This document shows positions 1,164 through 49,537 of a stretch of DNA of 64,000 nt, one piece after another. The notes beneath the pieces were generated by a model, which was not told the DNA's origin, did not search any database, and saw nothing but the letters and a program-made list of their open reading frames with translations. The DNA is from Vermamoeba vermiformis. Its lineage: Eukaryota. Position numbers and translations under genes: made by a program. Numbering within the stretch: the first letter of the stretch is position 1; each line of letters starts with the position of its first letter. The stretch covers positions 62,001 to 126,000 of the forward strand of contig JBEWZL010000008.1 of NCBI GenBank assembly GCA_045837725.1, given 5' to 3'.

Positions 1164-4100
1164 TTAAATCACGTGACTGTACCGGCGAGTGTGCTCAGAA
1201 TACACCAGCAGTGCCAAGAGACAGCACGTGATCATCAACACGGTAGTCAGCACGTGATTCAATTTGTGCGCGTCATCGTTTGACACCTGATGATTGACAC
1301 GAGTGACACGTGTCATCACGCGAGTCTTGCCCTGGTCCATGGCCTGCAACGTCTCCAGCTCGATGTCAAGTGTCGCTTTGACACGTGTCATATCGAGGTG
1401 TTCACGCGTCAACTTGTCCAATCGCGCGCGACTGTCCTGCAGCACGAGATGTGACTCGAGACTCATCAGTCGTGCGCGCAACAGACTGGCGCTGAGTTTG
1501 ACGAGGTGATTGAATGCCGCGCCACTCACCTCCTCGCGCACTGACTCCTGCACACGTGACGCTGCTGCGTTGTGAGCACGCATGCGATTGGTCAGTTCGT
1601 CAATGCTGCGCGTCAGACTCGTGTAGCGTGGTGAGCGCGGGGCCGTTGGAGATGCCAGCGGAATAACTCTGCTCACACGTGGACTGCGCGGACTACGCGG
1701 ACTTTTGACGGGCGGTAAATTTAGCTCCAACTCGTCTGCGTGGAGGACACGTGCCACTGCCGCAGTCTCGGGCTGCACTTCCATGGCAGTGAGTGGCGTG
1801 GAGGGATGGGCTGTGACAGGTGTCAATTCTTCGGCGGAATAACTCTCCTCATCGTCTTCGATGTGTGCCTCGTCCACCGATATCTCGGAGCGATCTCCGA
1901 TAGATTCATCGTCCTCGTGCTCGAATTCTGGCTCAATCATGAGGTCCTCGTCGTCGTCAAAGATCACGTGGTGCTCGTCCTCGTCCTCGTCCTCGTCGTC
2001 ACCCTGCAGCTCGACCAGCTCTTCGTCCTCTTTTGGAAAGTAGCTCTCTGCCAGCATGTTCTCCAGTTTCATGAACACGGTGTGCTGTCGCTGTTGCCAC
2101 GCCAGTTGCAGTGCTGTCGCGCCAGAGTTGTCGGAGATTTGAAACAGATCGAACGACCACAACTCTGCCACACACCCCACGTGACCACCTGCTGCTGCCC
2201 AGTGCAGGGCTGTGCGACCACGTGCGTCGCGTGCTAATTTGTCCGACTGATTGTCGACCAGGGTCTTGACGGCCTCTAAATGTCCGCGCTGTGCGGCTAT
2301 AATTAGCGCAGTCATGCCCTGCTGATCACATGCGTCTACCAAATTAGGCTCGGCACTCAACAGCTGTTCAATCACGTGCACGTGTCCGTGTCTGGCGGCC
2401 ACGTGGAGGGCTGTGCGACCACGTGCATCGGTGGCATCGGGAGTGGCACCGAGATCGAGCAGCAGTGCCACCAGTGCCACGTGATCACGCTCTGATGCGA
2501 GGTGCAGTGCAGTTTGGCCGTTGACATCTTGCGCGTCACGTGCGTGTGGTGGCAAATTGTCCCACAGTGTCTTCAGCAGCGTGACGTCGTGTGTGCCGTG
2601 CCAGGCCAAGTAGTGCAGCGGAGTGCGGCCCCGATGATCGCCCTGCGCGAGAGCTGGCGCGGGATTGAGCGCTAAAAATAGCTTCAACAATGGCGTGCCC
2701 TCGTATGTTGCGTCACGTGCCCAGTACGCGAGCCAGTGCATCAATCCACGTGACTTGTGATCGCGACACGTGACATCTGCGCGGTGGTCTACCAGGGCAG
2801 TGATCACGTGCTCAGCGTGACTCGCCACTGACTCGTGCAGCGGTGTCGCGTGTTTCTCGTCCGCGGCATTCGGATCTGCGCCGAGATCGAGCAGGAGATT
2901 CACGAGCTCAGGGTTGTTCCACCTGACTGCCAAGTGCAGCGGAGTTATTCCGGTGAGGTTCTTTTCATGAACGAGACTCGCATCGTAGCGCAGCAAATCT
3001 CGCACGAGCGCTAGTTGTTCCGCGCTGGGCTTGGCACGCAGTGCAGTGTGCAGTGGCGTGTTGTGGCCCTGGTCGAGTGTTTGCAACAATTTCTTTGCAG
3101 TGCTGTCACTGACACGTGTCAGAGCCCAGTTCATGAACGATTTGTTGCCAGCACGTGCTGCAACATGCAATGCAGAACGATGCCGACCAGATTCATTGCC
3201 TAATAAGGCAATAAACTGCTGATCATCGGAGATATGCGCTGAGATCACGTCGTAAAATTCTGCAGGGCTGCCATGTGCCATCCAATGCAGCGCGGTCCAA
3301 CCATTTTTGTCACGCGTTGTCAGCGATGACTTCTGAGCTAAAAATAACCGCAATGTTTCTGCAGAGTTCGCGTGGCTGGCAAGAAATAGATGCAAAGCTA
3401 TTCTGCCGTGTGCATCGGTGGCACTTGCTGTCTCGGGCGCGTGTTCTAATAATAGCCGCACGATGGATGCAGCTCCCAATCTCGCAGCGAGATGCAGTGG
3501 CAATCGACCGAGCTTGTCGGGTACTGTGGGAGATATTTCCTTTTTAAGCAATACCTGCACGCATTGCAGGGCGCTGTTGCTATTTATAGCTGCAGGATAG
3601 CGCTTGAGACCCAGCAGCACGTGATGCAGCAGTGAGCGGTGTTGCGAGTCTAAAAATAGCCACGGATGTCGATCGTGACAGTGGGTGAGCACGTGATCTA
3701 CCAGGGCCTCGCATCCAGACTGTGCCATCAACTGCAGTGCTGTCATGCCTTTGCGGTTCTGCTTGGCGAGTGGAGTGCCAGCTGCCAGCAGTAATTCCGC
3801 TGCGTGCACGATGAGTGCCACGCGACTGTCATCGTGTTCGAACCTAATCGGGACAGTGGCCAGCACGTGGAGGGCAGTGCTGTCGTAGTGATCCACTGCG
3901 CGGGGGTCTGCGCCTATTTTTAGCAGCAGAGCGAGACAGTCCACGACACCACGTGCACGTGCCAGCATGCGATGAGTGAGGGCGTGGTGCAGACCACTCG
4001 CAGTCACGTGCAGCACTGTGCGGCCTTGCAAGTCACGTGCGCGCACATCTGACAGCGGTGTCACGTGGGGGCGTGTGGTGGGTGAAGTTGAAATTTCCTC

Positions 4101-5435
4101 TGACAGCAGCGCGGACACCACTGATGCGCGGCCTGCCCACGCAGCCCAAAATAGCGGAGTTGTTCCGCGCTCGTCAACGGGGTCGTATGCCAAAGATAGC
4201 AATGTGTTGAGCGGAAATTCGTGCAGCTTGATCTTCTTTTCACGCGCGCGAAATTGTTCCCAAATTTGGTGCATGACTTGTCTGACGAGCAACTTGACAT
4301 GTTTGACAGGTCCGTACAGTGCCGCGTAGAACAGTGCTGTCATCCCTTGCTGATCACGTGACAGCAGGTCACTGCCGCGGTCAATCAGGGCGCGGAGAAT
4401 TGCCGTGTTGGGCAAGGCTGCTGCGTCTAAAAATAGAAGTCAGTTCGCAAGATCCGAAGCGTGCCAGTCACGTGACGTACAATGCAGGGCAGAGCGGGCT
4501 TTGACATCGACAGCAGTGAGCACCACGGACTTGTGTGCCAGCAGCGCGGTGACAGCACTCGTCTGTTGTGACAGCACTGCCACGTGCAGCACTGGCGGAG
4601 TGAGGCGTGTGTGCAGCGTGGCCCCGTGATCGATCAGGGCGCGGAGCACTTCGCCGAGACCGAGGCGTGCGGCCCACCAGACTGGACTGCGGCCCTCGTG
4701 ATCGATCGCATCGGGGTCTGCTTTCTGCGCTAAAAATAGCTTCACTGCCTGCACGTCATCGACCAGCACGGCAGCGAGCAGCGGCGTCACGCCATTTTTG
4801 GTCTTGACGTGCACACTCTGCGGGGTGTTTGCAACAATTTTGCGCAATCGACTGAAGCGAATCAAAGCATCGGAGCGCGGGGTGTGCAGCGGACTGTCCT
4901 CGTCACGTGATTGGTCAGAATCGTATTCGCTGTCACGTGATGCATTCATTCCTTGCACGCGATTCAGCATCGCCATCACGTGATTGGGCGTGCTATTTTT
5001 AGACTCGTCGTTCTCTGAATCGCTGCTCGACTGCTCGTCGTTCACTGTCACGTGATTGTGGAGCTCGCTGGTCGGTGGCGTTGAAATTTCATTCTCTGAA
5101 TCACTGCTGTCACTGCTGTCGGGATTGGCTTCGAATTCTTCGCGATTGAATCGATCGATCATGACTGCATCGGGGTGTATCACGCGCGGAGGTACGGAAT
5201 ATCTCCGTGCTGGGAGATCGTTGTGGCACCACTCGCTCGCAGTGCCTTGCAGTCGCGGGTGCATCACGCGGCCTGACTCGTCCACGTGCCACAGTTCACG
5301 AATGAGCACCTCTTGTTCCGCGCGATCGGCATTGAGCGTCAATATCGTCGACCAATCATCGCGCACCAAATTGCGCAGCTCGGCGGGTATTCGTCGACGG
5401 TTCATGGATCTCGCTCTAGCGGATAAATATTGCAT
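1164..5435 (-). CDS. Large ankyrin-repeat protein with acidic tract, coiled coil and C-terminal hydrophobic helix
   Basis: ORFs 4440-5459 and 1164-4415 join through a GT-AG intron at 4427-4480 (ALH-Y-AAALPNT). More than 20 G-x-T/S-A/P-L-H ankyrin motifs are present, and the end reads VLTTVLMITCCLLALLVYS. The start codon is uncertain. Confidence 0.88.
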
Positions 5436-5832
5436 TGTTAATCGTCTTTGATTTAACACGATCGAATTACGGTTATTGGTATTATTAAATAATAATTATC
5501 AATACATGCATAATATAACAAAATATTTAATTTATTTAATGCAACTGTTCCTTCAGGACTTTATCGCAGATACTACAATAATCACAATAGATATTATGCA
5601 CTTACTAGTATTAAAGAGTGTATTAAGTTCGATCCAGATCGTCACCACACCGAAACATTGAAATAAATAATTTAGTTAATTATTACAAGCTGAGTCGATG
5701 CAGTCAATATTATACTATTGACTACTCTCCTCTATTGTTCGAGTCAATAACAAATGACACAACGGTAACATATCAGCAAGGGCGGGCTGAAGATTTTTTG
5801 CAAGCGAAATTTCGAGGTTGTTGGATCCACGC

Positions 5833-8800
5833 TCACTTGGCGGTGAGGTAGGTCTCCATGACAGCTTTCATGGCCTTAAATCCTTCTTCGAGCTCTTTCT
5901 GGAAGGGAATCTGATCGGGATTGATGAGCTGACTGGATCTGTTCAACGCATCGGCGCACACTTCGAGGAACTCTTGCAGCGCACGACGAATCGACTCGAC
6001 CTGCTCGCTGTCGTACTGACCCTTGCTGGACTCGCTCAGGAACGCCTTGGCGACCTCAGTAGACCCAGCGTGTACCTCTGCGCAGTGTTAGTACCGGTAC
6101 AGTGTAGTGGCAGCAGATCTAGCTGCGAGCACTCTCTAGCTGCCAGTATTCTAGCAGCGAGTACTAGCACTCTAGCCAGTACTCTATCTAATACGTACGT
6201 GGTGAGACCGTGCCCTGCAGCACCCCCATCAGTGTCTTGGCATTGGGATTGCGCAGCTCGTTCTGCAGCTTCTGAATGCGCTTCTCCACGGTCTCGAGCG
6301 CGTTCTCAATGGGCGCGAGTTCGACGGAGTGCTTCTTGGTGATCTTGAGCCGCGTCTTCATGTACGGGAATGCTGTCTCGACCTGCAGAATCGTCTTGCG
6401 CTTGTACTGCTTGCTCAGATCACCGCTCTGCTGCTTGCCGTCTTTGGTGAACGGCGTCTCGAAGATGAACGACGCTGTGGCACGTGATTAGCGGGGGTCT
6501 AAAAATAGCTCAAAAGTGTTGCAAAGACTTACTAATGTTGTACGAGCGGTCGTAGTGCGTGACGCGGTCCTTGAGTTCCCAGGGCTCGAAGTACGGGTCC
6601 ACAGAGGTGATCTGCAAATAACACTGCTTGTCGAGGTCGAGCTTTGACACGTCCACGTCAGCGGAGGTAGTCAACAGCTGCACTTTGACACCTTCACCGA
6701 ACTTCTTCTGATAAAGATTCTAAAAATAGCATGGCAATTAGTCTAGTTGCCGTTGACACCTGTCACGTGACACATACCACCAGTCGATCGGAAATTTCAC
6801 CGAGACGTGTCAATTTGGGTTCTTTGTAAATGAACTCCTGGCCACTCAGCTCTTCGAACAAATTGCCAAAAAAGGCAACGCGATAGTAGCTGCCCAAGAA
6901 TCTGCTCTCATTTTGCATCTAAAAATAGAAGTATAAGTTATAGCCGCAGAGCAGGCGAGTCACGCGTACCGAGAGTATAATCTTGTCGAATATCTCCTTG
7001 AGATCGAGATGCGCGGCACTCAGCTTCACGTAGTCGCGATTCTTCTCGAAGATGGGCAGCAGCAGCTTGTACAGCTCGTTGCACGCCTCGTACAGCTCCG
7101 CTTGTCGCAGATAGTCGATGGCCTGGCACATCACCTTCACCAGTCCGTCTTCAGTGAATATTTGCAGCTCTGTCGTGGCCTCGTCGTCCGTCACACCGCC
7201 CAGCAGATCACCGCTCGACTCCAGCACCTCTTCCAGGGCACTGTGACTCACGTGCTCGAAGGCCGCACAGCCCACGGGCAGTCCCGGACTGGGCTCAGCT
7301 AAATTTAGAAACTCTGCGATCAGTGCCGCAATGTGCACGACTGCAATGCCTGCTTCAGCCCAGGCCCTGGTAGATGTGTCAGACAAAGATGGCGCACTAA
7401 AAATAGCCCGTACTTATTCTTCTCGTGCAGTGAGGCGAGTGATTTGAGCCACGTGACGCGGAGATCCGGCGCGTTGTTGTAACTCTGCGCGATGTGGTGG
7501 TACAGATCTGCCAGCATCTCGTTGTCTTTGTTCTATTTTTAGCGTGAGCGAGTGACAGCTGAAATAGTCGCAAAGACCGATTACCTTGGCGTGGCGAATG
7601 CTCTTGACGCTGTCCTCGAGAATAGTTTTCAGTCGTTGCACGAGTTGAATGGCCTGATTCTCGAGCTCTGCATCGCTGCCCTTGAGATCTGCGCGCACGT
7701 ACTCGGGCAAGACATCGAGGGCACGGCGCAGATAGGCCGGGTCACTCACTTCACCCTCACCCACCAGCTTGGACAGCGCGATGGTGGTTGCCACTTTGAT
7801 GCGCGTGAAGTTTTTCCGCTTGGTGGCCTCAAAGTTCTTTTTCATGAACAGGTAGATGATGGCACTGGCCTCGCTCCTGACTGCATTGTTGTTGTAATTG
7901 CAGTGCGCGAGGATGAGATTGCACAGCTTGGCACAGTACTGCGTGTTGAGCGTGAACAGTGCCTTGGGGAACTTGTAGATGAATGTGCGCAGCGTGGCGT
8001 AGGCGTGCGTGAGATAGGTGACGGACTGCTTCATCTTGAGCGAGGTCTTGAGCACTTTGAACACCTGATCGAGCAGCAGATTCGGCTGATGACTCTCCAC
8101 CAGCTCGCTCTCCTTGGCGGCCACAAAGCACTCCAGCGCATCGAGCAGGATCATCGACACCTCGTGACTCAAGTGACTCTCGCGCTCGCTGTTGTAGTCG
8201 AAGCGCTTGTCCACTTCACTCGCGTAACTCGCGCGCCATCGCTTGGGGTCTTTGATCGAACCACTCTGCGAACTCGACACACTCACGCCACTGCTGCTCG
8301 GCTGCGGTGTGTGTCCTGGCGTCGGGTTCTGCGATGGCGCTGTGCCACCACCCACCGTATTGCCGCGCGATCTCGCTTCAATTCTCCGCTCGCGCAGTGA
8401 TTTGTTGCGCGAATCAGATTCGTTGGGCTGATCTTGGTACTTCTCTTCGAACATGGCCATCACACTCGACTTGCTCTCGCTCTCGCGGTTCATCTTCTCC
8501 AAGTACGCCTCGCGACCCACGTGCTCGAACACACGTGCTGCAAATGACAGTGCGGTCAGGAATCCGACCAGACGCGTCACCGTGTCAATCTTCCACCAAT
8601 CGCGCATGAGGTGTGCGGAACAATTCTTGACAATGTAGCACCATAATAGGAAAGCACTGCGCTGCTCATCAAAATCTGCTTCACGATAGAAGGCGAGATT
8701 GTCGATCACCTGTCACGTGTCAGTTAAGTGCTAAAAATAGCCGCAGTACGTACGTGCAGCACGAAGGGGAAGTAGAGCTCAGCGATGCGTTGCTTGACGC

Positions 8801-11800
8801 CGCGCTTGTTGTAGCGGTGATCGTGGTCGTGGCGCATGAACAGCTGATGCAGCACGGCGAGGGCTTTGAGGCGCAGCGGCTTGTCGTGATTGATGCTCAG
8901 CTCGAACACTGCGCGCAACACCACGCCTGCCAGCACGTGGCGCTGTGCGTAGAGCTCCAAGAGCTTGGGCAGATTGGTGACGGTGAGTGCGTGGTGGCGC
9001 GGCAGATTGAGCTCAATCCAGTGCTCGTGCAGCACCAGGATCTTGATGTGTTCCAGCTTGACGTCGAGCAGTTGCAGCTGTGGCTCAGTGGTGCTGGGCG
9101 AGAGCTCTTTGATCACGTGCTGTATGACATCGAGCACCACACCGCGGTCCATCACAGCCAGCATGTCGGTGAGGTAGTGCGCGAGCGAGCGATTCAGATC
9201 TTTGAACACACTCAGCGTCTTCTTGAGCTGCGTCTGGATCTGATACGCCAGCAGCACGCACAGAGAGTGCACTGCGCGCTCGCACTCAGCACCGAACCGC
9301 TTCTGACGCGTGCTCTGATCCTCTGTGGCAAGGGGTCAGTGACTAAAAATAGCGCTATTGCGAGTACGTACGCAAGAGATGCAGTGCGGCGAGTCGATCG
9401 CACATGGACTTGTATATAATCTTGAATAGGAACCAGCTGTACTTGTGGTACTTCTCCAGCTCACTCACACTGGCTGGCGTGCTATTTTTGTCGCTGCTCT
9501 GCACGGTCATGCTGGCACTGGCTGCGATGACACCTTGCGGCAGTGCGGCGGTCTTCTCTTTGACTACGGCCAGCCACTGCTTCAACAGCTCGTAGTACAC
9601 CCAGCCATTCTCGTCGTTTAGTGCGCTGCTGTTGGTCTCGCTCTTCTTGGGGTCTACAAACACGTGCTCGACGTACTTTTCGAGGAATGCCTTGCTGTCG
9701 AGACTCTCGTTGTGCATGCTGGCAATCAGATTGATCAGCACGTGCAGAGCCTCGCGACTGAGGTCACTGCCCTGCGCGATGAGCTGCAACAGCTGCGTGA
9801 ACAGCACGGGCATGAACTGAATCACCACGCGCGGCTTGGCCTTGGTGAGCTGTGAGAGCGAGGTCGCGAGGGCCGTGCGATCGAGCTTGTGCTTCTTGTT
9901 GTCGACGAAGAACTGATTCACGTGCTTGTCGCTCGCGTGCACGGTGGAGACGAGACGCAATCGGAACTTGAAGGTGATCTTCTTGCTGTCAATCAAGCTC
10001 GCTTTGATCGCTTCACTCGCCTCTTTGCTCAGAAACTTGTTGGGCAGTTCACTCGCAATCGGAATCTGAATCTCTTTCTCCATGATGCGGCCCTTCACCA
10101 TAATAGGAATGAACGCGTACCCGACAATGGTCGGTTCCGAGGGTTTCTTGAGCTGACAGGGCACGTGATAGAAGGTGAACAGCAAGTTGTGGCGCGGCGT
10201 GAGGTGCAGCGGCAGCTTGATCTTGATCTCGTCGTAGAACTGCGGGGCTTTGTTGTGGTACTGCACGGCTGTGAACACGTGATCACTCATCTCGGGGTCC
10301 GCGCTGTTCTTGTTCCACAGTGCGCGCAGTTTGCTGGTGACGTCATCGGTTTCCAAGAATTGCACTGACACGGCAATGTTCCGCGCTGACTTCTGACCGT
10401 TGGTTTTGGTCAGATTGACCATTTCGGGATACAGATACAGATTGTTGACGTATTCCAAATTAGGATATGCCGTCAATGTTTGCGGGAATTCTTGCACTTC
10501 TTGAATGTACTGCACCAAGGTCAGCGGAACAATAATAACACAATCAGCGGTAACGTACCTCGGACGATGGCACTTTGACATCAGGGTGCACTGGCAGTGA
10601 ACAGGGCGACACGAGCACCTCTTGCATATTTGCAGGCTTGGCATTGGTATTTGCAGCCACATCACTCTGCGCCAGCTCTTTAATCTCGAGTGTCATGTAG
10701 CCGTTGAGTGGCTTCATTTTCTTGGAACTCGAACTGCCTTTTTCGGGCATTTGTTCAAAAAAGGCTAAATCTCCGACATCTCCGCGATATCGGTAGATAT
10801 TTTTCATGGTGATCTGATGCGGATGATCTTTGCTGCCGCTGGTGATGACACTCATGCTGCGGTCCTCGGCGTTGAACAGTGGCAATATGCCGACACAGAA
10901 CGGTTGACGCCACTGCCCCAAGCGCGCGCATCGCTCTTTGACATCGCGCTCAATCTTCTCGCGGTCCTTGTCCTTGACATTGTCGAACTTGACGTAGGAC
11001 TCGACACTCTCGTCGTAGTCGCCGTGCAGCACCTTCTCGATGCGCACCACGAGGAAGATGTCGGGACTCGGCGAACTCACCGAGAACAGCGCGCGCTTGC
11101 AGGGCTTGGTCTTGATCCGATGCTCGCCCAGCATGTCCGTCACTTCCGCACCGTTCAGCTCAAAGTAGTAGTTCTCTGATATGCGCACCTTCTTGGAGAT
11201 GTCGTAGAGGGCCATGGTGCAGAAATAGGGCTCGATGTTGCCCAGTTCAAACTTGAGTTCTTTGGGCTCTATCAAAAAGCGACGTACGCTGTCATAGCAG
11301 ATTGTAAGAACATCGTGTCGATAGGTGTAAGGTACGTACGGCTTTGGTTTGAATGGCGGCACTCGTTCAGTGACCACTGCTGCATCTGCTGCGGGATTGA
11401 GTTGATAGAGCTCGTGTCGTCCAAGCAGCTGGGGTTGTGTTAGCATTGCCTCATATAAACATGCGTTACGTACTCTGTTTTTTTCATTCAATCCATCGGT
11501 AGTCTTGGGCTTGTAACTCTCCAACAGATCAGTACGCACCACATCTCGTCCACTGGAGGCTCCAAGACCACTGGAACTTGGTCCTCCTGATGCGCTAGCA
11601 CCTGTACTCGACTCTTGTTGACTCTCCTCGATACTGTCTTCGTACAGCAAGCTCGTTAAGTTGGAGTCTGATTCACTGCGTGCTTTCAAGCCCAGATCGG
11701 CGCAAGTGCGTGTGTAGCCGCGCCACTTCGTCAGATAGAATTCTACGCAGTCTTTGACGTGAGGCAGCAATTTTTCCTTATCGCGTGCGTGTTGCCAATC

Positions 11801-12453
11801 TTTGATTTCGGGATCCAATTCAGTTCGAAACTCGCGAGGCAGTTCAACTTCTTTAATATCGTCTTTTGGAAATTCGAATAGCTCTTTATTAGCCTCTTTG
11901 ATCACTTCTTCTTTTTTGATTTCATTCTCGTAATCAAACGCTGGTGGACCGCCCTGCAGATTCAACGTCAATTAAATTGCATTAATCTGAATACACATTC
12001 ACGGTACAGTGGAATTATATTGAACAAAAATCGTCCCACTAATAACTGTGCCATATTGTCACCGAAATATCTCTATGTAATTTACCACTATTAAAGAAAA
12101 TCTTTTTATTTGTGATTGATATTGTGATTAATAATTAATTCTATTTGCTAGCTCAATAAGCTCTATTCGAGTCCATTGTAGCATATCATTACCTTGGTGA
12201 TTTCAGCTAATCGTGCAGAGAAGTTATCGCTCGAAACTGTCGTAAGTGTCTCGCTATCCGAACCTGGATCTGCACTCGAACCTTGACGCGAGTGCGGTGA
12301 TTTGCGCGCGCTATTGAGGGCAGCGCTGTTGTTGTTATTTTGCGAGCCAAATGGCATGCTCATCACACCTGTCACTGACGAGCCACCATACGGATTGGGT
12401 CGGTGAAAGCGACCAGATCCGAACTTGCCTGGGGCCGCCGGTGTCTGACTCAT
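5833..12453 (-). CDS. DOCK-family Rho GEF, zizimin / DOCK6-11 type (multi-exon)
   Basis: DHR-1/C2 signature YVNNLYLYP...[10 protein letters not shown]...[38 protein letters not shown]-2 signature [12 protein letters not shown]...WAEAG...[24 protein letters not shown]. Stop codon follows ...METYLTAK. Confidence 0.93.
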
Positions 12454-12659
12454 GTTTGTGGTACTGTAATATATTCAACTGCGCCTCAGACGCGAAAGTT
12501 CGCCCAGTCCGTCACGTGATTGGTGATTTTATCAATTTTAGACTGACCGTTGTTTGCCGCCGAAAATAATAATGAAATTTTGATTGATAGCAACACTAGC
12601 TGTTACGCACAGAGACATCTCATCAATACACTACTACGACGCATTGTACTCGAACAATA

Positions 12660-13285
12660 ATGAGCAAGCAACAAAGTTTGAACAAGTAAGTGGCACCGAA
12701 GAAGTTATCGATTGCTATTGGTAATTGACCTTTGTCTTGTTTGAAGGATGGTGAAGACACTCAAAAATACGGGCAAGATATCTGATGAGATGGAGGAATT
12801 GATTAACAAGAAGATTCAACTCGAACAAGATTTGGCCAATCTCGAGCGCCAGATTTACAACTTAGAGACGAGCTATCTGGAGAACTCATCGCCCATGGGT
12901 AATCTTGTGCAGGGCTGGAACGAGACTCCTGCCCGAAGCACAGTGAATAGTCAGCGCAAGCAAGTCGTGGATGAGGATCGGTTGTTCTCGCTTTCATCAG
13001 CCACTTCAATCAATGTACGTACACGTGCTTATAATTGTTCCATAGCAACTTTAACGAATCGTTATTGTTTCAGTACACACCGCTCGGGCAAAAGCAGGAT
13101 CTAGGTGAGTAGTGCGCGAGGCAGTGCCGGTGATCGAGCGATGGACTGAACTATTTTTAGATGCACCAGTGACACGTCCGCACAAGCAGATCAAGTTGAG
13201 CAAAAAGAAGTCCAAGCACCCCAAAGCGAGCTCGGTGAGTGAGGACGATGCGATGCAAGAGGACAGCTTGGAGACGTACGAATGA
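12660..13285 (+). CDS. EAF6: NuA4/MOZ histone acetyltransferase subunit EAF6-like
   Basis: ELINKKIQLEQDLANLERQIYNLETSYLENSSPMGNLVQGW...DEDRLFSLSSAT is the Eaf6/MEAF6 pattern. Four exons with GT-AG introns. Confidence 0.88.
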
Positions 13286-13408: not shown

Positions 13409-16257
13409 TTACATGCCGTTATTTACATCGTCTTCAGTTTGACACCTGTCATTCGCAGTGTCGAGCGCTGTCAACAACTGCTCTAACGCGTCACACTCGC
13501 GCTCACTCAGCTGCGCATTGACCGTGCTCAGCGCGTCACGTGTCAACTGCATGACAGGCACTGGCACTAACTGCAACAGATCACGTGACTGTACTTCGCA
13601 CTGAGCACGAACTGCGAGCACGTGATCGAGCAGTGGCTGCACGGTGTCAGGTGTCAGCAGGTAGTGCTCGCATAGCCACACGCACCTATTAATAGCGCAG
13701 TTGTTAGTTCAGTGAACTTGTGGTTCAGTGAATACGTACTCGCACGTGACTGGGGAGCTGCTGACAAGTTTAGTAATGTGCACGTGCCTGAACACGCGAC
13801 TCAACACGTGCAACAGTCCTGCTCCTGAAAATAGCGTCAATACGCGCAAATACATTGGTGCGGCAAATAAAATTAATTGCATTCAAAACGGGTAGTTGAC
13901 CCATATTTAGCGAAATTTCCTAACCTGGTCTGAGGAGCACGTCCCATCCTTGCAGTACGAGCGTGCCACCAACTGTCAAACATGTCAAAGCTACGCATAT
14001 CTCCGCACTAAGTGTTGACCACGTGATCTGCTCGAGTGCGTGGGTGTATTGTTCCGCTGACTCGTGTCGCGTGTGATACTCGATCACGTGACTCACGCCG
14101 TACCGCTCTTTGTGCCACTTGTTGCTGAGATTTCCAATGACAAGTTGACACTGCAATCCACTCACGCGCGAGATTGCGTGTTTGACACCTGTCACCGTGT
14201 CACTCCATGTACTGTTCACATCGAGATACACCACGTGACCGTCAACTTGTAGTGGCATGGTGTGCAGCGCGGTGACACGTGTCATTGCTGTGTGGGCGAG
14301 CAAGGCCTGAACAGCGCGGTTAACGGACTGCTCGTGCTGGCAATTGGACGTACCTGCACAGTGCCACCACGACCGCGTGATAGATCGAGCACGTGACCAG
14401 GATGAGTGGTCAGTGCGTAAAGCGGTCCTAATAATAGCTCCGCTAACTTCTCGCCATCCACGCTGAGATACGAGTGCTGGTACGGTGACTGGAGTGTTGC
14501 GAGCACTCGTTTGACACCTGTCATTCGCAGCGCTGAGCGCAGGGTCAGTTTCCTAATTCGGAGCGCGTCATCGATAAACTTGCTGTGATGCAGCTCAGCG
14601 ACACGTGATCCGAGCACTGGTGCCCCCCACGTGTCAATATCGCGTGACAGCACTCGACTGACAGCTAGTGGCACGTGACACTGGAGGGTGTGTTGCATGA
14701 GGGGCCAGTGCTGCTCTAACAGCGCGTGTACTGGCGAGTAGTAGTACTGCACGTGATTCAGCCAGACTCCTGTGTGACACGTGTCACTCTCCCGCTCAGA
14801 ATTATCGCCACGTGACCAATCTCCCGTGCAGCTCTCTTCTTCGCACCGTGCAGCCACGTGATCGACCAGTCGTTTGTCACGTGGCAAGGGACAGGGCGTG
14901 TAGCGTTGCAACCATTCTTGGGCAATCACGTGCCGATCGGTCAAGATCTGTCTATTTATGGCAGGTGTGCGGTGTCCGTACAGCGCGAGATTTCGTGTGA
15001 TCGTGCGCAGCTGCAGCTCCACGAAGAATTGCGAGCACGTGATCAGATCTTGTACGAAGGTGGCAGGTATGCGATCACGTGCCAGCATCGCGTGCGAGGT
15101 CAGTTGCGTGCACGTGACTTCAGACCAGCTTTCAGTGAATTGCACGAGGATGTCGAGCACGTGCTGATTCAATCCACGGAAATTCAATCCGACGAGGTAG
15201 ACCTGTCAACCCGTTATCCACTGCGCACTGTGGCACTGTGCCACTCGCTTACCTCGGAATTTCCCGCTTTGCTGGCACTAGGCTTGCAGATGATGAGCCG
15301 TTCAAAACTGACACGTGCCAGCAGCAGCGAATTCACTGTCACGTGCTCGAACAGCGTGAACAGCTTGAGGACCAGTGTGCCACCACGGTCCAGTACGCGC
15401 AGTGCCACCAATAATTCACTGAAATGCAACGGTGCAGTCACGTGCTCTTGTTGCTCTGCGCGATGTCAGTACGAGTTTCCAAATAAGGCAATGAACAACA
15501 TACCCGGCACCTCGCTGCAGTCAACGCTGCCATCAGCTGTCACACATGTCACTTTGCGTCCCTCGCGCATCACGTGCTCGACGATGGCATTCATCGTGGA
15601 GCTGCGCAGGAGATTGCCCGAGTCTTCAGGACCAAATATCCAGTGTCTAAATGTGGCAATCATCACGTGATCGTCGCTCAGCATTGTTCCGCACTTGTTC
15701 GACTCGTGCCACGGATTCAACGTGCTCGCCAGCCACGCGTGCTGCAGCTCGGGTCGGTGCGCGTGTACGAAGTGTCTGGTGCTGCTGATGAATGCACCTG
15801 GGGCCTCGCAGAGGTGCAGCGAGCGGAAGGGAGGCTGAGCGGTGTCTCGTGCATCGTGCGCGGGATCTGGAGGCAGAATCTGCTCGCGATAACGCTGCAG
15901 TATTTCGTACAATTTTGCCCACGCAATCGTACATATTTCTAAAATATTAGCATTTATTATTTCGCTGCAATTAAAATTACCTGGCTGGACTTGCTCGCGG
16001 ATCTTGTAAACAACATCGCGCGATCTGCTGGTGAAATCTGTATGTTTACTCCAATGCGTTATATTGACAAAATCTAACTCGCTCTTCATACAATTTAGCC
16101 TTTCTTTTAACGCTTGAAGCTCGGGAATGTGATAGATCTCGCTCGAAAAGTATTCTGCAGCATCGAGCGGTAAAACGAAGAGCGGATCCAACGATTTGAA
16201 CTCATAATACTTGTTAAATAGTTCTTCTACCGAATCAAATTCAAAATCGAGTTGCAT
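13409..16257 (-). CDS. CMTR2: Cap-specific mRNA (nucleoside-2'-O)-methyltransferase 2 (FtsJ-like)
   Basis: AWAKLYE, SLHLCEAPGAFI, WLASTLNPWHE, VTADGSVDC, LVLKLFT and KPSASKAGNSEVY supply the K-D-K-E tetrad of RrmJ-fold 2'-O MTases. A degenerate second MTase-like domain follows. Confidence 0.9.
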
Positions 16258-16379
16258 CGCACATTGTTGTGTTGCTGCGTTTCATGGCGCAGTGACATTT
16301 GAGTATTCTTGTTTCGAATCTTTAAGTTTTCATACGAATTGTATCACTTTTCTCGAGTCGTCCTGCACAATGTGAGCAA

Positions 16380-29295: not shown

Positions 29296-29372
29296 TCTGC
29301 TTATTGAACGGTTGATTTACTGTCAACTGTCAGCTGTAATTAGACAAAACAAGTAATGTACATAAAAGGAAA

Positions 29373-31098
29373 TTAATTTCGCTTCGGAGGGGCTCCGAAC
29401 ATTTTTGGAGGCGCGCCTTTAGGTCCAGTACCGGGCGGAACACCAACCTATTTTTAGCACTGTGAGTACTCAGCACGCACTTTGACACGTGTCACACACT
29501 GACCTTGACATTCGGACCACTCTGCGTGCGATTGAATGGCAGCGGAGATTTCGGCTGCGCAGTGTTCACGATGGATGTCGCGAGACCCATGGCACTGAGC
29601 GCACTGGGATTCGATCCAGAGCCCGTGTTGACACGCACGTGACCTGCGGGGGGTGTGGCGTGTGTGACAGCACTAGTGGCACGTGGCGGCGTGGGCTGAT
29701 CGGCGACAGTAAAGTGCGCGAAGGAACCGAGATCGAGCACGTGTACGTCATTCACTGAACGGGGTTAGTGCTGATTACCTTATATGCGGTTCACTTACCA
29801 GCCAATTTGCTGTCAAATCCACCAATCACAATCAGCCGCTGATCGACGAGCACTGCACTGTGATAGCCACGTGGATCAGGCGCCTGACCAGCCACACTCG
29901 CGGTCTTGATCACCCAGCGGAATTTCTTGGTGGCAAGTGTCGCGGGGGTGAGCAGGGCCTGACGCAGCTCTTCGTCGCACATGAGCAGCCACAACTCGCT
30001 GTGATTGGTCAGTGCAGTTCACTCGATGACACGTGTCACTCACCTGTCGTAGGACTTGCTGTTGTGACCTGCAAACAACACCAACCAGGGCCCCATCATC
30101 GTCAAAGTGTGCGCAAATCTCGGGCCAGGGTTCTCAATTTGCAGCTTGTGCCACGTGCTCGTCTGCGTGTCAAACACCCACGTGTCATTGTAGCAGACCT
30201 TGCCGTCACTGCCGCCAGAGATGAACAGGAACCGTTCACTGAACACGCACCCTGCTTGATAGCCGCGACCACCGGGCAGGGCGGTGCCTTGCGGTCTAAT
30301 TTTAGACCACGTCATGGATTCGGTATCCAGCACGTGCAGGTCATTGCGCGCTGTGCTGCCATCACCACCGCCAAATAAGTACATCATCTTGCCGATCTGT
30401 CGCACGTGTCAGTCCTCAATTTCCTAATTAGGCAAGTTACTCACCGCTTCACACGTGTGCGCGCGTCGTTTGCCGGGCAGTTCACCCTTGGCGTCTATTT
30501 TAGTCCATTCGAGAGTGTCTGGTGCTGGTCAGTCACGTGATTGTAAATAGTTGCAAACACTCACTGATATTGAGCACGTGCATGTCATCGTAGTACGCGG
30601 TTTGTTCGTCACCGCCGCCGTAGTAGAAGATGCGATCGCCGATCAGTACAGAACTCGCAGAACTGCGCGCACTGGGCAGTTGACCCTGTTGAAATATAGG
30701 CATTATAATTCAATACATGCACAAATATAGCAGGTGTATATAGCCCTCTGAGGCCGAGGTCAAACACATTTCACCACATCTCCACCTGCTGGAATAACGG
30801 CTCTAATAATTACCTGCGTGCGAGATATTCTCCAGGTAAATGTTTCTGCATAATAATGTAATTAATAACGCTATTTGAAGCATTCAATTTTAATTTTCAA
30901 TTCCAGATGTCATGTCCTGTCATTAAAAAAATCTTGCTTCGTACCGGTGTCAAAGATATATAAATTGTGAAAATAAGGCTGATTCGGTGATCCTCGTCCT
31001 CCAAATACAAAGATTTTGTTGCCCACGCGTGTCGTGGTTGCTGATCGCAGGCCATGATGCGGCATCTCGCCCGACACTTCAGCGCGCGACCAATTCAT
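29373..31098 (-). CDS. Kelch-repeat beta-propeller protein with Pro/Gly-rich tail
   Basis: Repeated R-x-x-H...F/IGG...ND..V.D..T..W Kelch units across several exons. Confidence 0.85.
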
Positions 31099-31159
31099 GG
31101 CTTAATAACGATTAATATGAGTGTTGCACTTGAATTGGCTAACAGTTACTGATAACAAA

Positions 31160-31339
31160 CTGTTTTCTCCCAAATCACGAACATTCTGTCAGACACATGT
31201 CAATTTTAATGAGCTTATCAAGGAGCTTGCACAGTATGGCTATAATACTAACAAGTCATGTATATCACGATTACTGAAACTTTGGCGTTGGAGCGTTAAG
31301 AAGATTAGTCCCCTACAGCACGCGTACTGTACCACGTAA
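31160..31339 (+). pseudogene. Possible IS630/Tc1-mariner transposase helix-turn-helix remnant
   Basis: ELIKELAQYGYNTNKSCISRLLKLWRWSVKK resembles the winged-HTH segment that precedes the DDE domain. No DDE domain or proper start codon is visible. Confidence 0.4.
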
Positions 31340-31537
31340 CCTCCAAGGAATAACTATCACCAATGCATGTGACAGCTGCTCTCGTTACAATTACACGCAC
31401 AATGCTCGAGGAATTCGCAGCCATTTACTAGTATGTATATATTCACAAAATTGTTGCTTAGTGGCCGTGTCTGTGACCTCCAAGTTTGTCCTCCTAAAAA
31501 AGTACGTTAAAGGACTGCAATCATCATCAGTGAAATT

Positions 31538-34526: not shown

Positions 34527-36913
34527 ATGGCAGAATCGAATTCTCTATCGACAAATACCAGCGAACATCGTCGGAACACATCCGGCATTAATTTGGGCAG
34601 TCTACTGCGGTTATTTAAGAGCAGCTACTTTGACGCGTGGATGGGCGTGTCATATTTGTTCAGATACGCCTCGTCTGGCGTGCAGGATTACTTGGTCAAT
34701 CAGCTCTATTCACTGCCTGTAGATCAGATCGAGTTTTATCTAACGCAATTATGGTAAATGTCGTGCATTTAATTCATATTTAATTACTATAATTATAATT
34801 AATGAATAAAATTGTGATGAAAATTAAAAATTTCGTTTTTCGGGATCAGAACTTTGAATTTATTTTAAACATAATTTGAATGACAAATAGCCGAACAATC
34901 ATCCATACAATATCGTCATTGACATGTTGTTTATTGTAATCATGGCTATTATCGTATTTTATTTCAATTACATTTCTGCCAAGCTTGATATTAACCGGTT
35001 CTGTTACTATATTTAGCTACATGTTGGTGCGCAATCACGTGACGAGCAAGACACTCGAGCGCTTTGTCATCGATCAGTGCTGCAAATCACTGCACCTGGC
35101 CCTCAAAGTCTGTTGGCAGCTGTTGAGTTGGCACGACGAGCTGGATGTGGCTGTCACTACGCGCGCACGTGACTTGTACGAACTGTGCGAGACAGCTGCT
35201 GTCAACGGCACACGTGACCAGGCCCTGCTGAACATCACGGACGAAGAGTCACGTGATCAGGCCCTGACAGAACTGGCCCTGGTCAAGGCTGATCGCTGCG
35301 AATTCTTTTACGGCGAATTGACCCTGATCGAGGCACTTACCGAATTAGGACAAGACTTGCGACTGACACCTGTCGACGGTCGACTGGCACAACTGCGCCT
35401 CAAATTAGAAGCACTGAATGCCAAGCTGTTCAACTACGAGTCACGTGACGGCAAGTGTGTCGGGCAGTACGTGCCACTCAACACCGCACTCGAACTGCAT
35501 CACGTGATTTTGAGATTTGTGGCCGATGAGGCTGTCGTGCTCAACTCACGTGATCGCGCGCCTTATTTGGTATACATTGAAGTGCTGCAGTCCGAGTCAG
35601 TCAAGTGCGGTGACCCCAATTTGTTCCGCGTGGGCGAGCAGTACATGACAGCACTGCGGAACAATGCGCTGTGGGACGACAGTGTGACAGCAGAGGACAC
35701 CGTGCCGACCATCGACAGCATTGTTTTTCCGTCTGAAACTCCGCGCCCACGTGATCAGCCGAGCGAGGACAAGTCACGTGATTTGCAGAACAGACACGTG
35801 AAGGAAATTCCCGAAGAATTGAAGCGTCAGTTAGAGAGCGCGCTCAAAGAAGAAAAAGAGCACCCCGAGCTCGCAGCAGGGGACGGACCACTCTCGGGCG
35901 GGCCTGGCGCGCTGACCAACATTGCGCACATCGACACACCGCTCGTCAGATCGGAGTTATTCAAAGATCGCACGGAGCGGATCCGAAAGAAATCTCCGTA
36001 CGGTCACTTGCCAGGCTGGGGTAAGCGACAAGCAGCTGTTTGACACTGATCACGTGACTCATCATTTGCAGGTCTCAAGTCGATGATCGTCAAGGTCGGT
36101 GATGACTGTCGCCAGGAATATTTAGCTTTGCAGCTGATTGGTGTATTCCACTACATCTTCACACAAGCAGGATTGCCTAATTGGGTGTTGCCGTACAAGA
36201 TTCTGATTCTCAACGACAACAGCTGTCTCATTGAGACCATTCTCGATGCAGCGTCCATTCACCAAATTAAGAAGGCCAATAATTGCATCAGTTTGTCGCA
36301 ACTCTTCGTCAAGGTAAGTGCTAAAAATAGCTCCGATCACGTGCGCGACTGACAGCCCATGCAGCGCTACGGACCAGCGAACAGTGCGCGCCACAGCGAG
36401 GCAGTGAAGCAGTTCATGCACAGCTTGGCCGGCTATTCCATCGTGTGCTACTTGCTGCAGATCAAAGACCGCCACAACGGCAACATTATGCTCGACGAGG
36501 AGGGGCATCTGATCCACATTGACTACGGATTCATGTTGTGGAACTCACCCGGGGGGCTCAACTTTGAGTCCGCGCCGTTCAAGCTGAGTCGCGAGTACAT
36601 TGATCTGATGGGCGGGGCGGACAGTGCCACCTTCTCCTACTTCAAGTCCATATTCGTCAAAGGCTTCCTCGAGGTGCGCAAACATCAAGAGCGCATCGTC
36701 ACCCTGGTCGAGATTATGTTGCCTGGCTCGCGACTGCCGTGCTTGCAAGCTGGTCAGCCCGTGATTGACGCCCTCAAAGAGCGCTTTGCCATGAGTCTCA
36801 CCGAGACTGAGTGCATTGCGCATGCAGAGTCGCTCGTGACTAGATCTCTCGACACGTGGCGCACACGACAGTACGACAAGTTCCAGTACATGAGCAACGG
36901 CATCTTGTATTAA
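34527..36913 (+). CDS. PI4KB: Phosphatidylinositol 4-kinase type III beta (Pik1-like)
   Basis: SLLRLFKSSYFD, EFYLTQL, VLNSRDRAPY, IRKKSPYGHLPGW, IVKVGDDCRQE, QIKDRHNGNIM, HIDYGF and FESAPFKL. Confidence 0.93.
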
Positions 36914-37118
36914 TAATAGCTCACCATCACCTCCTTGTACAAAGTAAAGCGACAGTTCAACCCATACAATTGATAGAAGCACTCGACATAGTGCTGAGGG
37001 GATGCTAGCATGAAACGCTTACTAATTTAAGGCCCGCACGACGTGCCAACGGTTTTTTTAGTGAAATTGTCAAACAACAATACAGATCAGAACAACCTAA
37101 CACTACGGATATTGAACT

Positions 37119-38919
37119 ATGGCTGAGCGTAAAGTAGTGACTATCGCGGAGATTACGGGGCTGGTCGGCGACGGCTCTGCATTAAACCTCGCCAACAGAT
37201 CCCTCACTGAATTACCTGGTAATAGCGACGATTATTGTAAATATATTATATTTAATTAATATTTGTAGAATTAACCAAGTTCCCGGCGTTAAAGAAGATT
37301 GATTTGAGCAATAATGCATTAGATTCGCTCTCAGGAATTAAACATAATCACCAAGTCACCTGGCTATCTTTAAAGGGCAACAAATTGACCAAATTGACTG
37401 CCATTAGTCGCATGAAAAATTTGGTTGGTAAGTTTGAGGGCGGATCAACAATTCGATCGCGATCAGATCCATGTCAACTTATTTATTTGGACCTGAAAGC
37501 CGTTCGAAAATTCATATATTAATATATAATAATTTTTAGTACTAAACGCGGCAATGAATGAGGTGAAAGACTTCGATCCAAGCCCGCATCCTCGCCTCTC
37601 TGCACTAATTCTCAACAATAATCAACTCACTCGCATTCCTACTTTTGATAATAACCTCGAATTAAACACGTTAGGTAAGCAGGCTGATACTAATACGATA
37701 TTGGTACTAACTAGCGCTGCAGTTCTCTCGCACAACAAGATCGAGGAAATGACGCCCGTCTTGTCCAAATTAGGCAAGATGAAGAAGCTCTCGCTGTCGC
37801 ACAATCAGATTAGAGAGATTGCATATGTCTCCGATCAGTTCTATCTGCACGAACTCAAGCTGAACGACAACAAGATCCGCAACCTGCCCGAGTCCCTCGC
37901 GAAGAATGTCAGACTGGAGATTCTCGATTTGGGCAATAACCAAATTAGGGACTTTGACGACATTAAAGTACTGTCGCAGCTCAAGGGCTTGAAGAATTTG
38001 AACTTGAAAGGCAATCCCATCACGCAAAAGTCCAGTTATCCCGATCAGCTCTACGTCCTGTGCCCGTTCATTCGTGTAAGCTAAAAATAGCATCGGTGAC
38101 ACCGAGTCTCAGGAATCTTTGCAGATATTGGACGGCAAGAAGCGCGAGATCAAGTCGAAGAGTTTTGTGGCGAGTGACACGAAGGGTGCCGTGCCCCAAG
38201 TGTCAAACAGTGACTCGAACAAGCGCAAGCGTGAAGTGACAGATGTCAATGAGGAGCCTGCACCGAAGCGACAGAAGATTGAACAGAGCGACGAGAGCGA
38301 TCAGCACGCGGAGTCAGCGGAGCAGATGGAGACTGAACAAAATTCACGCAAAGACAAGTCAGCTGACACGACCAGCAACAGACCTGCTTTCCAAAAAAGG
38401 AATAGAGATCAAGGACCTGACCGACGACCAAATGCCACTCAAAAATTTCAGCGCAATGAAGGCGCACAAAGAACACCGCGTGAAGGTGACAGATCTAACT
38501 TCAAAAACAACGAGCGAGGACAGCAATCACGTGACAGAAATAACAGCAAAGTTAATGCAGATCAGCCGTTTAAGAAGAATACAGATAACAGTAATAAAAA
38601 CAAGCAGATGAACAGGAGTGAAGCACAGCCGAACAAAAAACAAGAGCAACAAAACAAATTTACCAAAAAAGGAAAACAACAGCCGCAAGAAGAACAACCC
38701 GAGCCAGTACAAAATAAGAAATCAAAAGAGCAAGTGACACCTGTCAAAGAAGTGTCCGTCAAGGTGACCGATGAGAACGCCCAGGCAGAAGACCCGCGAC
38801 CTGATCACGTAACTGGACCGAGTTCGGGCATTGTGAACATCAAATTGGCACCGCAAAAGAAACAATTTTCAGTGAAAGAACTGCTGTCAAACACTGAACA
38901 GCAAGTCGCGAGCTGGTAA
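37119..38919 (+). CDS. SDS22-like leucine-rich-repeat protein with long basic low-complexity tail
   Basis: Tandem LxxLxLxxNxI repeats and an LKNLNLKGNPI...LQILDG LRR cap. The K/N/Q-rich tail has an NLS-like KRKR...PKRQK. Confidence 0.82.
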
Positions 38920-49100: not shown

Positions 49101-49537
49101 TGACATCGTAAGATTCAATGGCAGCTGTTTTGGAAGTGGCAGTCTGACCGCCGGCCAAATAAACTTGATTCCCATCGACCGCTGCAGCCAGATGGACACG
49201 TGATTGGTTCAAATTTGTAACCGCATGTCGGAGCAACACGGTGTCAAAGATATCAACTTGATCCGACGGTTGTAGTCCGTTCAAAGAAGAATATCCTCCA
49301 GCAAATATTGCTACTGAGCCAATACTTTGGCTTGCCATGCCTCCGCGGGCTTGTTTTAAATTATAACTTGTCCATCTATTGAATTTTGTTATTTTCCAAC
49401 CGAGCTCGATTCAAAAAAGCTTACTTTGTCATAATATTGGCGTCTGCTATATTTTGTGAACAAACAAAGAGAAGCAGACATATTATTCCACTGTCAATGC
49501 TCCATCTGCCATTGTCGCCGCCTATTTTGAACTTCAT
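46127..49537 (-). CDS. Secreted or membrane-anchored Kelch-propeller + adenosine deaminase (ADA2/ADGF) + IPT/TIG protein
   Basis: Signal-like IICLLLFVCSQ and about 6-7 Kelch repeats. ADA motifs MPKG-AHLHIH, YIEYR, GYDLLGQED, YHSGES, RRIGHG, EVCPISN and SADDP. IPT-like SPACGPRTGG...CNFG...IKCQVP and a hydrophobic C-terminus. Confidence 0.88.

Follow-up and report, generated by a model that had tools for sequence, protein, structure and literature searches.

The question raised by this stretch of Vermamoeba vermiformis DNA, positions 62,001 to 126,000 of contig JBEWZL010000008.1, is why unrelated genes should carry the same few short words again and again, in their exons and in their introns. 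The window, by which we mean the whole 64 kb of eukaryotic DNA analyzed (G+C 0.475), contains five families of such words: CACGTG, CTA[AT]4TAG, CC[AT]6GG, TGACA[GC][GC]TGTCA and TTCA[CG]TGAA, written below with W for A or T and S for G or C. They occur 186, 37, 43, 24 and 24 times, respectively, nearly always between 1170 and 49197; beyond 49.5 kb CACGTG appears just 7 times. Counting CACGTG within TGACACGTGTCA once, the first 49.5 kb holds 290 words of the five families at a median gap of 78 nt, and their counts delimit a word-dense stretch, assigned to neither strand, at 1164..49340. The answer that we arrive at, and hold with high confidence, is that a pressure specific to the lineage, and exerted on double-stranded DNA, makes and keeps exact copies of these words in the bodies of many genes, not of all. 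It works through point substitution and overrides synonymous and some nonsynonymous constraint.

The first-pass annotation had claimed a joint enrichment of several unrelated families, seen in introns and in more than one reading frame and common to genes that have nothing to do with one another, and the counts, null models and frame tallies all bear this out. Under Markov models (40 simulations per order; figures in the order CACGTG, CTAW4TAG, CCW6GG, TGACA..TGTCA and TTCASTGAA), order 1 predicts 24.1, 0.4, 2.3, 0 and 1.0 copies, order 4 predicts 144, 2.4, 2.5, 0.25 and 1.5, and order 5 predicts 183, 3.4, 4.8, 0.55 and 3.0. The four longer words exceed the nulls 10- to 100-fold, the fourth-order model included. 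For CACGTG the order-4 and order-5 comparisons are uninformative because those models already hold the hexamer's own 5-mers; it stands 8-fold above order 1, 2.5-fold above order 3 and 2.3- to 3-fold above synonymous shuffles. The shuffles were made within genes over 27,561 nt of predicted coding sequence, keeping either protein and codon usage (n = 200) or dinucleotides as well (n = 60). In that sequence CACGTG is seen 140 times against 46.7 ± 4.8 in the codon shuffle and 60.9 ± 5.6 in the dinucleotide shuffle, CTAW4TAG 15 times against 0.2 and 0.1, CCW6GG 23 times against 1.3 and 1.1, TGACASSTGTCA 11 times against 0.2 and 0.7, and TTCASTGAA 10 times against 0.7 and 1.3. The control hexamer GTGCAC shows no excess (17 seen, 16.7 and 24.1 expected).

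A general excess of palindromes is ruled out, since the median observed/expected ratio is 1.03 for the 64 palindromic hexamers and 0.91 for the rest, with depletion in many of the palindromes. In the window as a whole the control hexamers GTGCAC and CAGCTG number 30 and 41, and the reversed controls GAT(W4)ATC and GG(W6)CC one each. The spacing is just as exact. CTA-Wn-TAG is found 37 times with W4, 4 times with W3 and twice with W5; CC-Wn-GG 43 times with W6, 3 times with W5 and twice with W7; and TGACA-Nn-TGTCA 27 times with N2, once with N1 and never with N3. The flanks lengthen the cores symmetrically. Around CC(W6)GG, T stands at -3 and -2 in 77% and 53% of copies and A at +2 and +3 in 70% and 63%, giving TTNCC(W6)GGNAA, and CACGTG prefers R at -2, A at +1 and C or T at +2, giving R-N-CACGTG-A-Y. 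The vocabulary accordingly reads CACGTG (R-N...A-Y), CTA(W4)TAG, TTNCC(W6)GGNAA, TGACA(CG/GG)TGTCA and TTCA(S)TGAA, plus nonpalindromic words, among them ATTGTTCCGC and TGACAGCA. The last of these is seen 23 times with 3.0 expected, and ATTGTTCC/TTGTTCCGC, GTGCCACCA and TTTGACAC are also enriched.

Pairs of words closer than 20 nt are scarce, and apart from that deficit we looked for periodic spacing or helical phasing of the words and saw none; the scarcity of close pairs fits sites that ought not to overlap. Dispersed mobile elements (MITEs, REPs, introners, palindromic insertion elements) can be rejected as carriers of the words, since there is no shared longer unit: no 14-mer exceeds 6 copies. 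The commonest 12-mers reach 14 copies, and introns that share a word are otherwise dissimilar. In the ankyrin and DOCK genes the words are in register with homologous positions and therefore have arisen by substitution, not insertion. This leaves little to a trivial cause such as codon-pair bias, ankyrin motifs, mobile elements, or assembly or polishing error. Ankyrin repeats do reuse the codon strings for A-R-D and L-H-V, and CAC, GTG and CGT are frequent codons in the predicted coding sequence. Against an artifact, the excess survives dinucleotide-preserving synonymous shuffles and the order-5 model, and the words also occur in introns, in three frames and in unrelated genes. Independent spliced contigs of another run match the assembly (19 of 28 pieces at 99% or better), and loose read ends from elsewhere also bear TTCACTGAA and TTCAGTGAA. 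An artifact of any of these kinds is hardly credible.

Placement relative to genes was read from our own spliced open reading frame (ORF) finder, which has no start/stop model, fuses adjacent genes and recovers 10 of the 14 RNA-supported introns. By its labels 33.2 kb is exon, 7.1 kb is intron and 23.6 kb is left unassigned, the last including missed genes such as a mitochondrial carrier, and because of these limits the labels are approximate. Omitting the few words that straddle boundaries, CACGTG falls 141 times in exons, 28 times in introns and 16 times in unassigned DNA; the corresponding figures are 15, 17 and 4 for CTAW4TAG, 27, 10 and 4 for CCW6GG, 12, 9 and 2 for TGACASSTGTCA, and 12, 7 and 3 for TTCASTGAA. 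Confinement to one reading frame does not hold, CACGTG being distributed 70/53/18 over the three frames and CCW6GG 5/16/6. Frames that would create a stop codon are avoided, and TGACA..TGTCA falls in a single frame in 11 of 12 cases.

The tie to transcribed DNA shows in a comparison of introns with unassigned DNA of equal composition. Over the first 36 kb, introns (G+C 0.44) carry 5.8 CACGTG per kb and unassigned DNA (G+C 0.43) 0.9; for CTAW4TAG the densities are 3.2 and 0.34, for CCW6GG 2.4 and 0.11, for TGACA..TGTCA 1.9 and 0.23, and for TTCASTGAA 1.9 and 0. The spacers at 11972-12747, 23822-24102 and 34041-35014, about 2 kb in total, contain one CACGTG and no other word. That copy lies in the first of them (11972..12747, no strand), a probable intergenic spacer in which the ORF finder gave no gene, and the other two have no words. 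Gene bodies over about 27 kb of the first 36 kb hold about one word per 115 bp. The words are strewn along these bodies, in the ankyrin gene over as much as 4.3 kb, without clustering at gene ends.

The introns themselves are small. GT..AG introns are seen in the spliced contigs of one run and in a small number of raw RNA reads. Most measure 43-57 nt and a few 99-128 nt, and they have GTRAGT-like 5' ends and CTGAC or CTAAC branch sites; 14 of them, drawn from 15 of 45 splice joints and lying between 25034 and 32795, form the RNA-supported set. A word lies wholly inside 8 of these 14, against 0.23 expected and a maximum of 3 in 2000 shuffles. In word-bearing introns of 44-54 nt, the word fills much of the sequence not required for splicing. 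In the LplA-like and RecQ-like genes, RNA supports mini-introns at 25034-25081, 25335-25384, 28799-28842 and 29046-29088. The first contains TGACAGGTGTCA, the second TGACAGGTGTCA together with CTATTTTTAG, and the third CCTTATTTGG. In the CLC gene, 5 of 8 short RNA-supported introns have an internal word; the intron at 29999-30043 contains TGACACGTGTCA and that at 30397-30444 contains CCTAATTAGG and CACGTG.

Since the words look like textbook transcription-factor sites and the spacers are short (280-970 nt), one might suppose that they are ordinary cis-regulation, the enhancers and promoters of neighboring genes embedded in the gene bodies of a compact genome. The likeness to the textbook consensus of bHLH, MEF2, SRF/MCM1 and TALE sites extends to core, spacing and symmetric flanks. 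Textbook sites, however, are found a few per gene in promoters and enhancers, whereas the amoeba words come every 100-200 bp through exons and introns. A density of about one word per 115 bp, with up to 13 CACGTG per kb, exceeds regulatory need, and the words are spread along bodies rather than near gene ends, leaving the spacers nearly empty. On the same spacer and gene-body densities, classical cis-regulatory clusters were rejected as a description. The same five families also recur in functionally unrelated genes. Cis-regulation of the ordinary kind is therefore unlikely.

Orientation to transcription bears on whether DNA or RNA is read. The asymmetric words and flanks are found sense and antisense about equally, with 9 and 6 copies for GCGGAACAA, 8 and 8 for CACGTGCTCG, and 35 and 33 for CACGTGAC, which points to a reading on double-stranded DNA rather than on RNA. 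Exonic and intronic splicing enhancers were rejected because exons show no sense-strand bias. A broader RNA-level explanation would include splicing enhancers, look-alikes of branch and 3' splice sites, or self-complementary pairing elements in the pre-mRNA. It draws some support from the limitation of the words to transcribed DNA and from their overlap in places with splice signals, namely TGTCA-CTGAC at branch sites and CTATTTTTAG, TCTACCAG|GGC and GTTCAG|TGAA at 3' splice sites. Within introns, the sense orientation CTATTTTTAG is commoner than CTAAAAATAG, 10 against 4. Nevertheless, the near equality of orientations in exons speaks against RNA signals, which also would not predict a match to DNA-binding consensus that extends to spacing and flanks, and we regard an RNA-level cause as highly improbable.

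The substitutions that build the words reach into the proteins. The dipeptide most in excess is His-Val, with 76 copies where 25.4 are expected; CAC-GTG encodes 70 of them. In the context NCA_CGT_G, CGT makes up 52 of 60 arginine codons (87%), compared with 8-20% in other contexts. At word positions the ankyrin protein carries L-H-V, G-H-V-H-V, A-R-D/G, L-F-L and three M/L-T-R-V strings, and in the C2 exon of the DOCK gene all five CACGTG are His-Val codon pairs. At those five DOCK sites, relatives with 58% and 40% identity have KI and AI, HI and HI, YV and YL, SA and HV, and YV and HV, respectively. A relative with 86% identity has HV at four of the five sites and QV at the fifth. Using the count of HV as a proxy where only protein is at hand, the 86% relative has 8 against 1.8 expected and the 58% relative 1 against 2.8. 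Since the excess is present in the first and not in the second, the pressure looks common to close kin and lineage-specific. A metagenome scan with the DOCK exon alone brought up no related DNA. A scan by alignment gave two loci of distant relatives, at 48% identity and 5,986 nt in total, neither of which has a single word; given their distance and shortness, they show no more than that the words are not universal. The words are shown to be made by three routes: context-dependent choice among synonymous codons, conservative amino-acid replacement, and the filling of the roughly 25 free bases in introns of 43-57 nt.

Not every gene takes part. The first-pass annotation had spoken of gene bodies saturated with words and had listed ankyrin, DOCK, a cap methyltransferase, ArsB, LplA, RecQ, Kelch, CLC, PI4K and ADA genes as examples. 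That the words are confined to gene bodies stands; general saturation does not, as some genes, probably native and with predicted mini-introns like those of the word-rich genes, are word-free. Of the listed genes (all named from Pfam matches), the clearest saturated one is the ankyrin-repeat gene at 1164..5495 on the minus strand, with 39 CACGTG and 17 other words over two ORFs, or 13.1 words per kb. An ORF at 14282-15205 has 18.4 words per kb. The FtsJ-like (cap methyltransferase-like) gene at 13448..16281 (-), whose FtsJ-like match lies at 15466-16281, is the densest stretch, at 13.1 CACGTG per kb of predicted coding sequence. The RecQ helicase exon, within the LplA-like and RecQ-like genes at 24103..29292 (+), has 12.3 words per kb. 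In the stretch of the PI4-kinase gene and a leucine-rich-repeat (LRR) ORF at 34940..38919 (+), the N-terminal kinase exon has 10.9 words per kb and the conserved catalytic exon 1.8, that is, one word, at a third-position G+C (GC3) of 0.78. The ADA-like and Kelch genes at 46-49.4 kb (-) have about 3 per kb, and the DOCK-C/D-type gene at 5800..11971 (-) is moderately word-dense over the 3' two-thirds and word-free over the N-terminal 1.3 kb. Zero words are found in the Ras-family ORF at 444..1058 (+), with a GC3 of 0.69, in the mitochondrial carrier at 18995-19585 (-) and in the ARGLU1-like ORF at 44 kb, all three recognized by Pfam. The Ras ORF sits about 100 nt from the ankyrin gene and serves as an internal negative control.

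Beyond 49501 the window is word-poor to its end at 64000 (7 CACGTG, 1 CTAW4TAG, 2 CCW6GG, 0 TGACA..TGTCA and 3 TTCASTGAA), with G+C of about 0.40-0.44 and GC3 of 0.33-0.53, and is still gene-bearing. From 49.8 kb on, an LRR-like ORF, a Q/P-rich low-complexity ORF at 50706-51902 (-; strong GC skew and a long ORF antisense to it), an RWP-RK ORF at 53970-54869 (-; Pfam) and a K/E-rich ORF at 61187-61726 (+) all have zero words. The predicted introns in this block are of 45-72 nt, GT..AG, with CTAAC-type branch sites, and since these mini-introns resemble those of the word-rich genes, the genes beyond 46 kb that are poor in words are probably native. Word count follows G+C with a Spearman coefficient of 0.77 over 32 bins of 2 kb, or 0.62 for the A+T-cored words by themselves, and the correlation of density with GC3 over 27 ORFs is weaker, at 0.49. 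The A+T-cored words are most enriched where composition makes them least expected; in the first 8 kb CTAW4TAG is seen 15 times where 0.02 copies are expected, and in the last 8 kb once where 0.22 are. Density seems to depend on some property of the gene or domain and also to fall as protein constraint rises.

Among known systems, those closest in pattern come from bacteria: HIP1, uptake sequences and Chi. HIP1 (GCGATCGC, in cyanobacteria) is a short palindrome, over-represented tens- to hundreds-fold, that runs through coding DNA in all frames and shapes codons and amino acids; its cause is debated between selection and a methyltransferase acting with repair. The analogy with HIP1, raised in the first-pass annotation, holds as far as the pattern goes. 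Hyper-abundance (at least 10-fold for four words), presence in all coding frames and the effect on proteins are common to both. HIP1, however, is one prokaryotic word spread chromosome-wide, spacers included, and tied to cognate methyltransferases, whereas the amoeba words are of at least five families, have W4, W6 and S degeneracy, extend to spliceosomal introns and keep to the gene bodies of a subset of genes, with spacers and unassigned DNA being 6- to 20-fold poorer in them than introns of the same G+C, and several genes without words.

A HIP1-like cause would have methyltransferases and a very-short-patch type of mismatch repair restore the words after deamination. Besides the precedent itself, linked to orphan methyltransferases (PMC4390886 and PMC5861425), one may cite in its favor that the perfect word towers over its neighbors: with words masked, the first 36 kb has 164 CACGTG against 15.1 expected, and the deamination product CATGTG/CACATG is somewhat low at 0.60. 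Yet most one-mismatch neighbors are at expectation (0.6-1.5, words masked), with no clear halo or depletion among them apart from AACGTG/CACGTT at 0.19, and CpG observed/expected is 1.06. Methylation-directed repair, one of the causes suggested at first, thus finds no support in composition. In addition, each of at least five unrelated words would require its own enzyme pair, the variable core lacks a C in three of these words, the W/S tolerance of CTAW4TAG, CCW6GG and TTCASTGAA is unusual for methyltransferase sites, and restriction to gene bodies would be unexpected. We consider this cause very unlikely.

As a composition feature of 1-49500 in its own right, CCGG is scarce (47 copies, against 132 of GGCC, 360 of GCGC and 336 of CGCG). 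The dinucleotides CC/GG are depleted there (observed/expected 0.7), and AACGTT, AACGTG, CTTAAG and CATATG are 3- to 12-fold under-represented, with CpG not depleted.

The other systems that come to mind share less. The uptake sequences of Neisseria and Pasteurellaceae (DUS/USS) and Chi are iterated 8- to 12-mers, present in coding DNA, visible in peptides and maintained by drive or repair. They differ in being single nonpalindromic words with an orientation bias or pairing in terminators, and they serve transformation or RecBCD, mechanisms without a known counterpart here. Oriented words of the uptake or Chi type were rejected on the grounds that orientations are about equal and the main words are palindromic. 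The nearest eukaryotic precedents are noncoding. In C. elegans, the PATCs, periodic A/T clusters located in the introns of germline genes, and the HIM-8-ZIM pairing-center motifs are short signals repeated along gene bodies or along domains of chromosomes, and they act at the level of DNA or chromatin, as a license against silencing or by recruiting zinc-finger proteins, and not as promoters. They have one signal type per function, 10-bp phasing or megabase clusters, and no reported recoding of exons. None of these precedents joins several transcription-factor-like words, exons and introns, restriction to gene bodies and recoding of proteins.

If the pressure is on double-stranded DNA, what reads it? 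It probably acts through protein occupancy, to judge from how specific the words are in sequence, spacing and flanks, and from textbook consensus sequences. The words would then be sites of abundant dimeric DNA-binding proteins of the bHLH or bHLH-ZIP, SRF-type and MEF2-type MADS, and TALE-homeodomain families, and a separate candidate binder would read TTCA-S-TGAA. We take CTA(W4)TAG to be the MEF2 consensus and TGACAG(G/C)TGTCA to be the TALE homodimer site, and the flanks of CC(W6)GG and of CACGTG presumably match MCM1/SRF-type 16-mers and TFE/USF-type E-boxes, respectively. The exact W6 and W4 spacing, the A/T-only core and the TT..AA flanks of a textbook MADS site are all present. The center of the TALE-like word is CG in 14 copies and GG or CC in 10, so that an E-box is contained there as well; the animal TALE homodimer consensus favors GC at the center. 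The reading of the words as protein sites, which goes back to the first-pass annotation, has thus gained from the dimer-like sequence, spacing, flanks and balanced orientation, and the assignments to bHLH, MADS, TALE and STAT remain putative family names taken from textbook consensus sequences.

Selection would then favor occupancy every 100-200 bp or so along gene bodies. What it would be for is more speculative. The bound proteins might mark genes as self or active, which would license them against silencing or a defense against foreign DNA, or they might organize the chromatin of gene bodies. Such a selected chromatin or licensing function is our tentative preference over neutral drive, for the reason that a conversion bias acting by region would hardly keep the words to transcribed DNA where G+C is equal. 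Taken further, the idea becomes a gene-body code, in which dimeric proteins would coat the bodies of a large class of genes every 100-200 bp or so, and word density would be a heritable mark of self or of activity, as in licensing against silencing or against a defense aimed at giant-virus or bacterial DNA. Such a code would have arisen recently, because the protein footprint is common to the 86%-identical relative and not to the 58%-identical one. We put this extended version forward as possible but doubtful.

Several considerations weigh against selected occupancy. Binding by transcription factors is presumed from textbook consensus sequences. In yeast, gene bodies avoid the sites of general regulatory factors because such factors, once bound, obstruct RNA polymerase II; a dense array of occupied sites within exons would be costly. 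The spacers, where regulatory sites would be expected, are almost empty. Several native genes have no words or next to none, whether their GC3 is high (the Ras ORF and the PI4K catalytic exon with its one word) or low, and universal licensing would therefore need exceptions. Density drops in the most conserved regions of proteins, which fits neutral drive as well as it fits selection. Finally, the basis is a single 64-kb window.

The serious rival to selected occupancy is a nonadaptive drive, in which the same proteins, or else repair factors, would recognize the words and alleles with a perfect word would be passed on in excess, the bound DNA being shielded from breaks or favored in heteroduplex repair. 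This "cold-allele", or footprint-biased, gene conversion would let words build up wherever conversion is frequent and protein constraint permits, to no benefit of the cell. Density is in fact lowest in constrained regions (Ras, the PI4K catalytic exon, the carrier) and highest in repeats and poorly conserved regions, and, as with uptake sequences and HIP1 in bacteria, the words prevail over the identity of the amino acid. The correlation of density with G+C, including that of the A+T-cored words, is what one would expect of words travelling with GC-biased conversion. In a related amoeba, a wide gene-to-gene range of GC3 has been ascribed to regional mutation bias (PMC11702301). On the other side stands the 6- to 20-fold difference between introns and adjoining spacers of equal G+C, so that drive would have to operate in transcribed stretches only. 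The Ras ORF, for all its high GC3, is without any word. There is also no known mechanism by which a bound transcription factor biases conversion toward its own site, and classical hotspot drive does the reverse, erasing the sites of the factor that makes the breaks. On balance, from this one window, we rate drive as possible, if less likely than selected occupancy.

In the open full-text literature we found no eukaryotic description of such words. In the main text of two amoeba genome papers (PMC11702301 and PMC10980511) the term "motif" is absent, and "palindrom" is likewise absent from the main text of the former. If the pattern holds genome-wide, this would be the first eukaryote known to have several protein-binding words iterated through coding DNA, altering codons, amino acids and introns. 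It would make testable whether protein occupancy, or a conversion bias linked to it, can shape whole gene bodies, and would offer a natural setting in which to tell selection on intragenic binding apart from molecular drive. Analyses of codon usage, dN/dS and motif-based promoters in these amoebae would be confounded by the words, which may account for part of the unusual GC3 spread reported for a related amoeba (PMC11702301). Amoebae are hubs at which genes pass to and from giant viruses and bacteria, and word content could serve as a compositional marker of native versus acquired DNA in them.

Of the remaining genes, an ArsB/CitMHS-type transporter lies at about 21.8-23.4 kb (-; Pfam) and the CLC chloride-channel gene, with 10 RNA-supported introns, at 29115..34040 (-; Pfam). 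The best named protein matches of the DOCK gene are amoebozoan (Cavostelium at 38%, Synstelium at 35%, and Pyxidicula), and those of the mitochondrial carrier are Echinamoeba exundans at 62%, Phalansterium and Rhizamoeba. By these matches the host is probably an echinamoebid amoebozoan, a tubulinean close to Echinamoeba or Vermamoeba. The carrier exon lies within a 5.9-kb segment (16009-21859) of lower G+C (0.44) and few words, flanked by word-rich genes, in which the ORF finder made no gene call. The branch site is CTGAC in the G+C-richer genes and CTAAC in the A+T-richer genes beyond 46 kb.

Raw RNA reads with the same species label were placed at 95-99% likeness in sets of 49, 45 and 100. 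Among 40 listed differences in these few reads, one hits a word, 32855 T>A, which falls in a W4 core and keeps the word. At the joint 31695-31753 (-), such reads put 7 other letters inside the joint, where another run's spliced contigs give a simple intron of 50 nt; the discrepancy is probably a strain difference at the intron end. An Rfam scan of the window returned a single tRNA and no other match. It is a 71-nt tRNA-Tyr with anticodon GTA at 63845-63915 (+), at 65.7 bits. Nuclear tRNA-Tyr genes of eukaryotes nearly always bear an intron, and this one is predicted by ARAGORN to be intronless.

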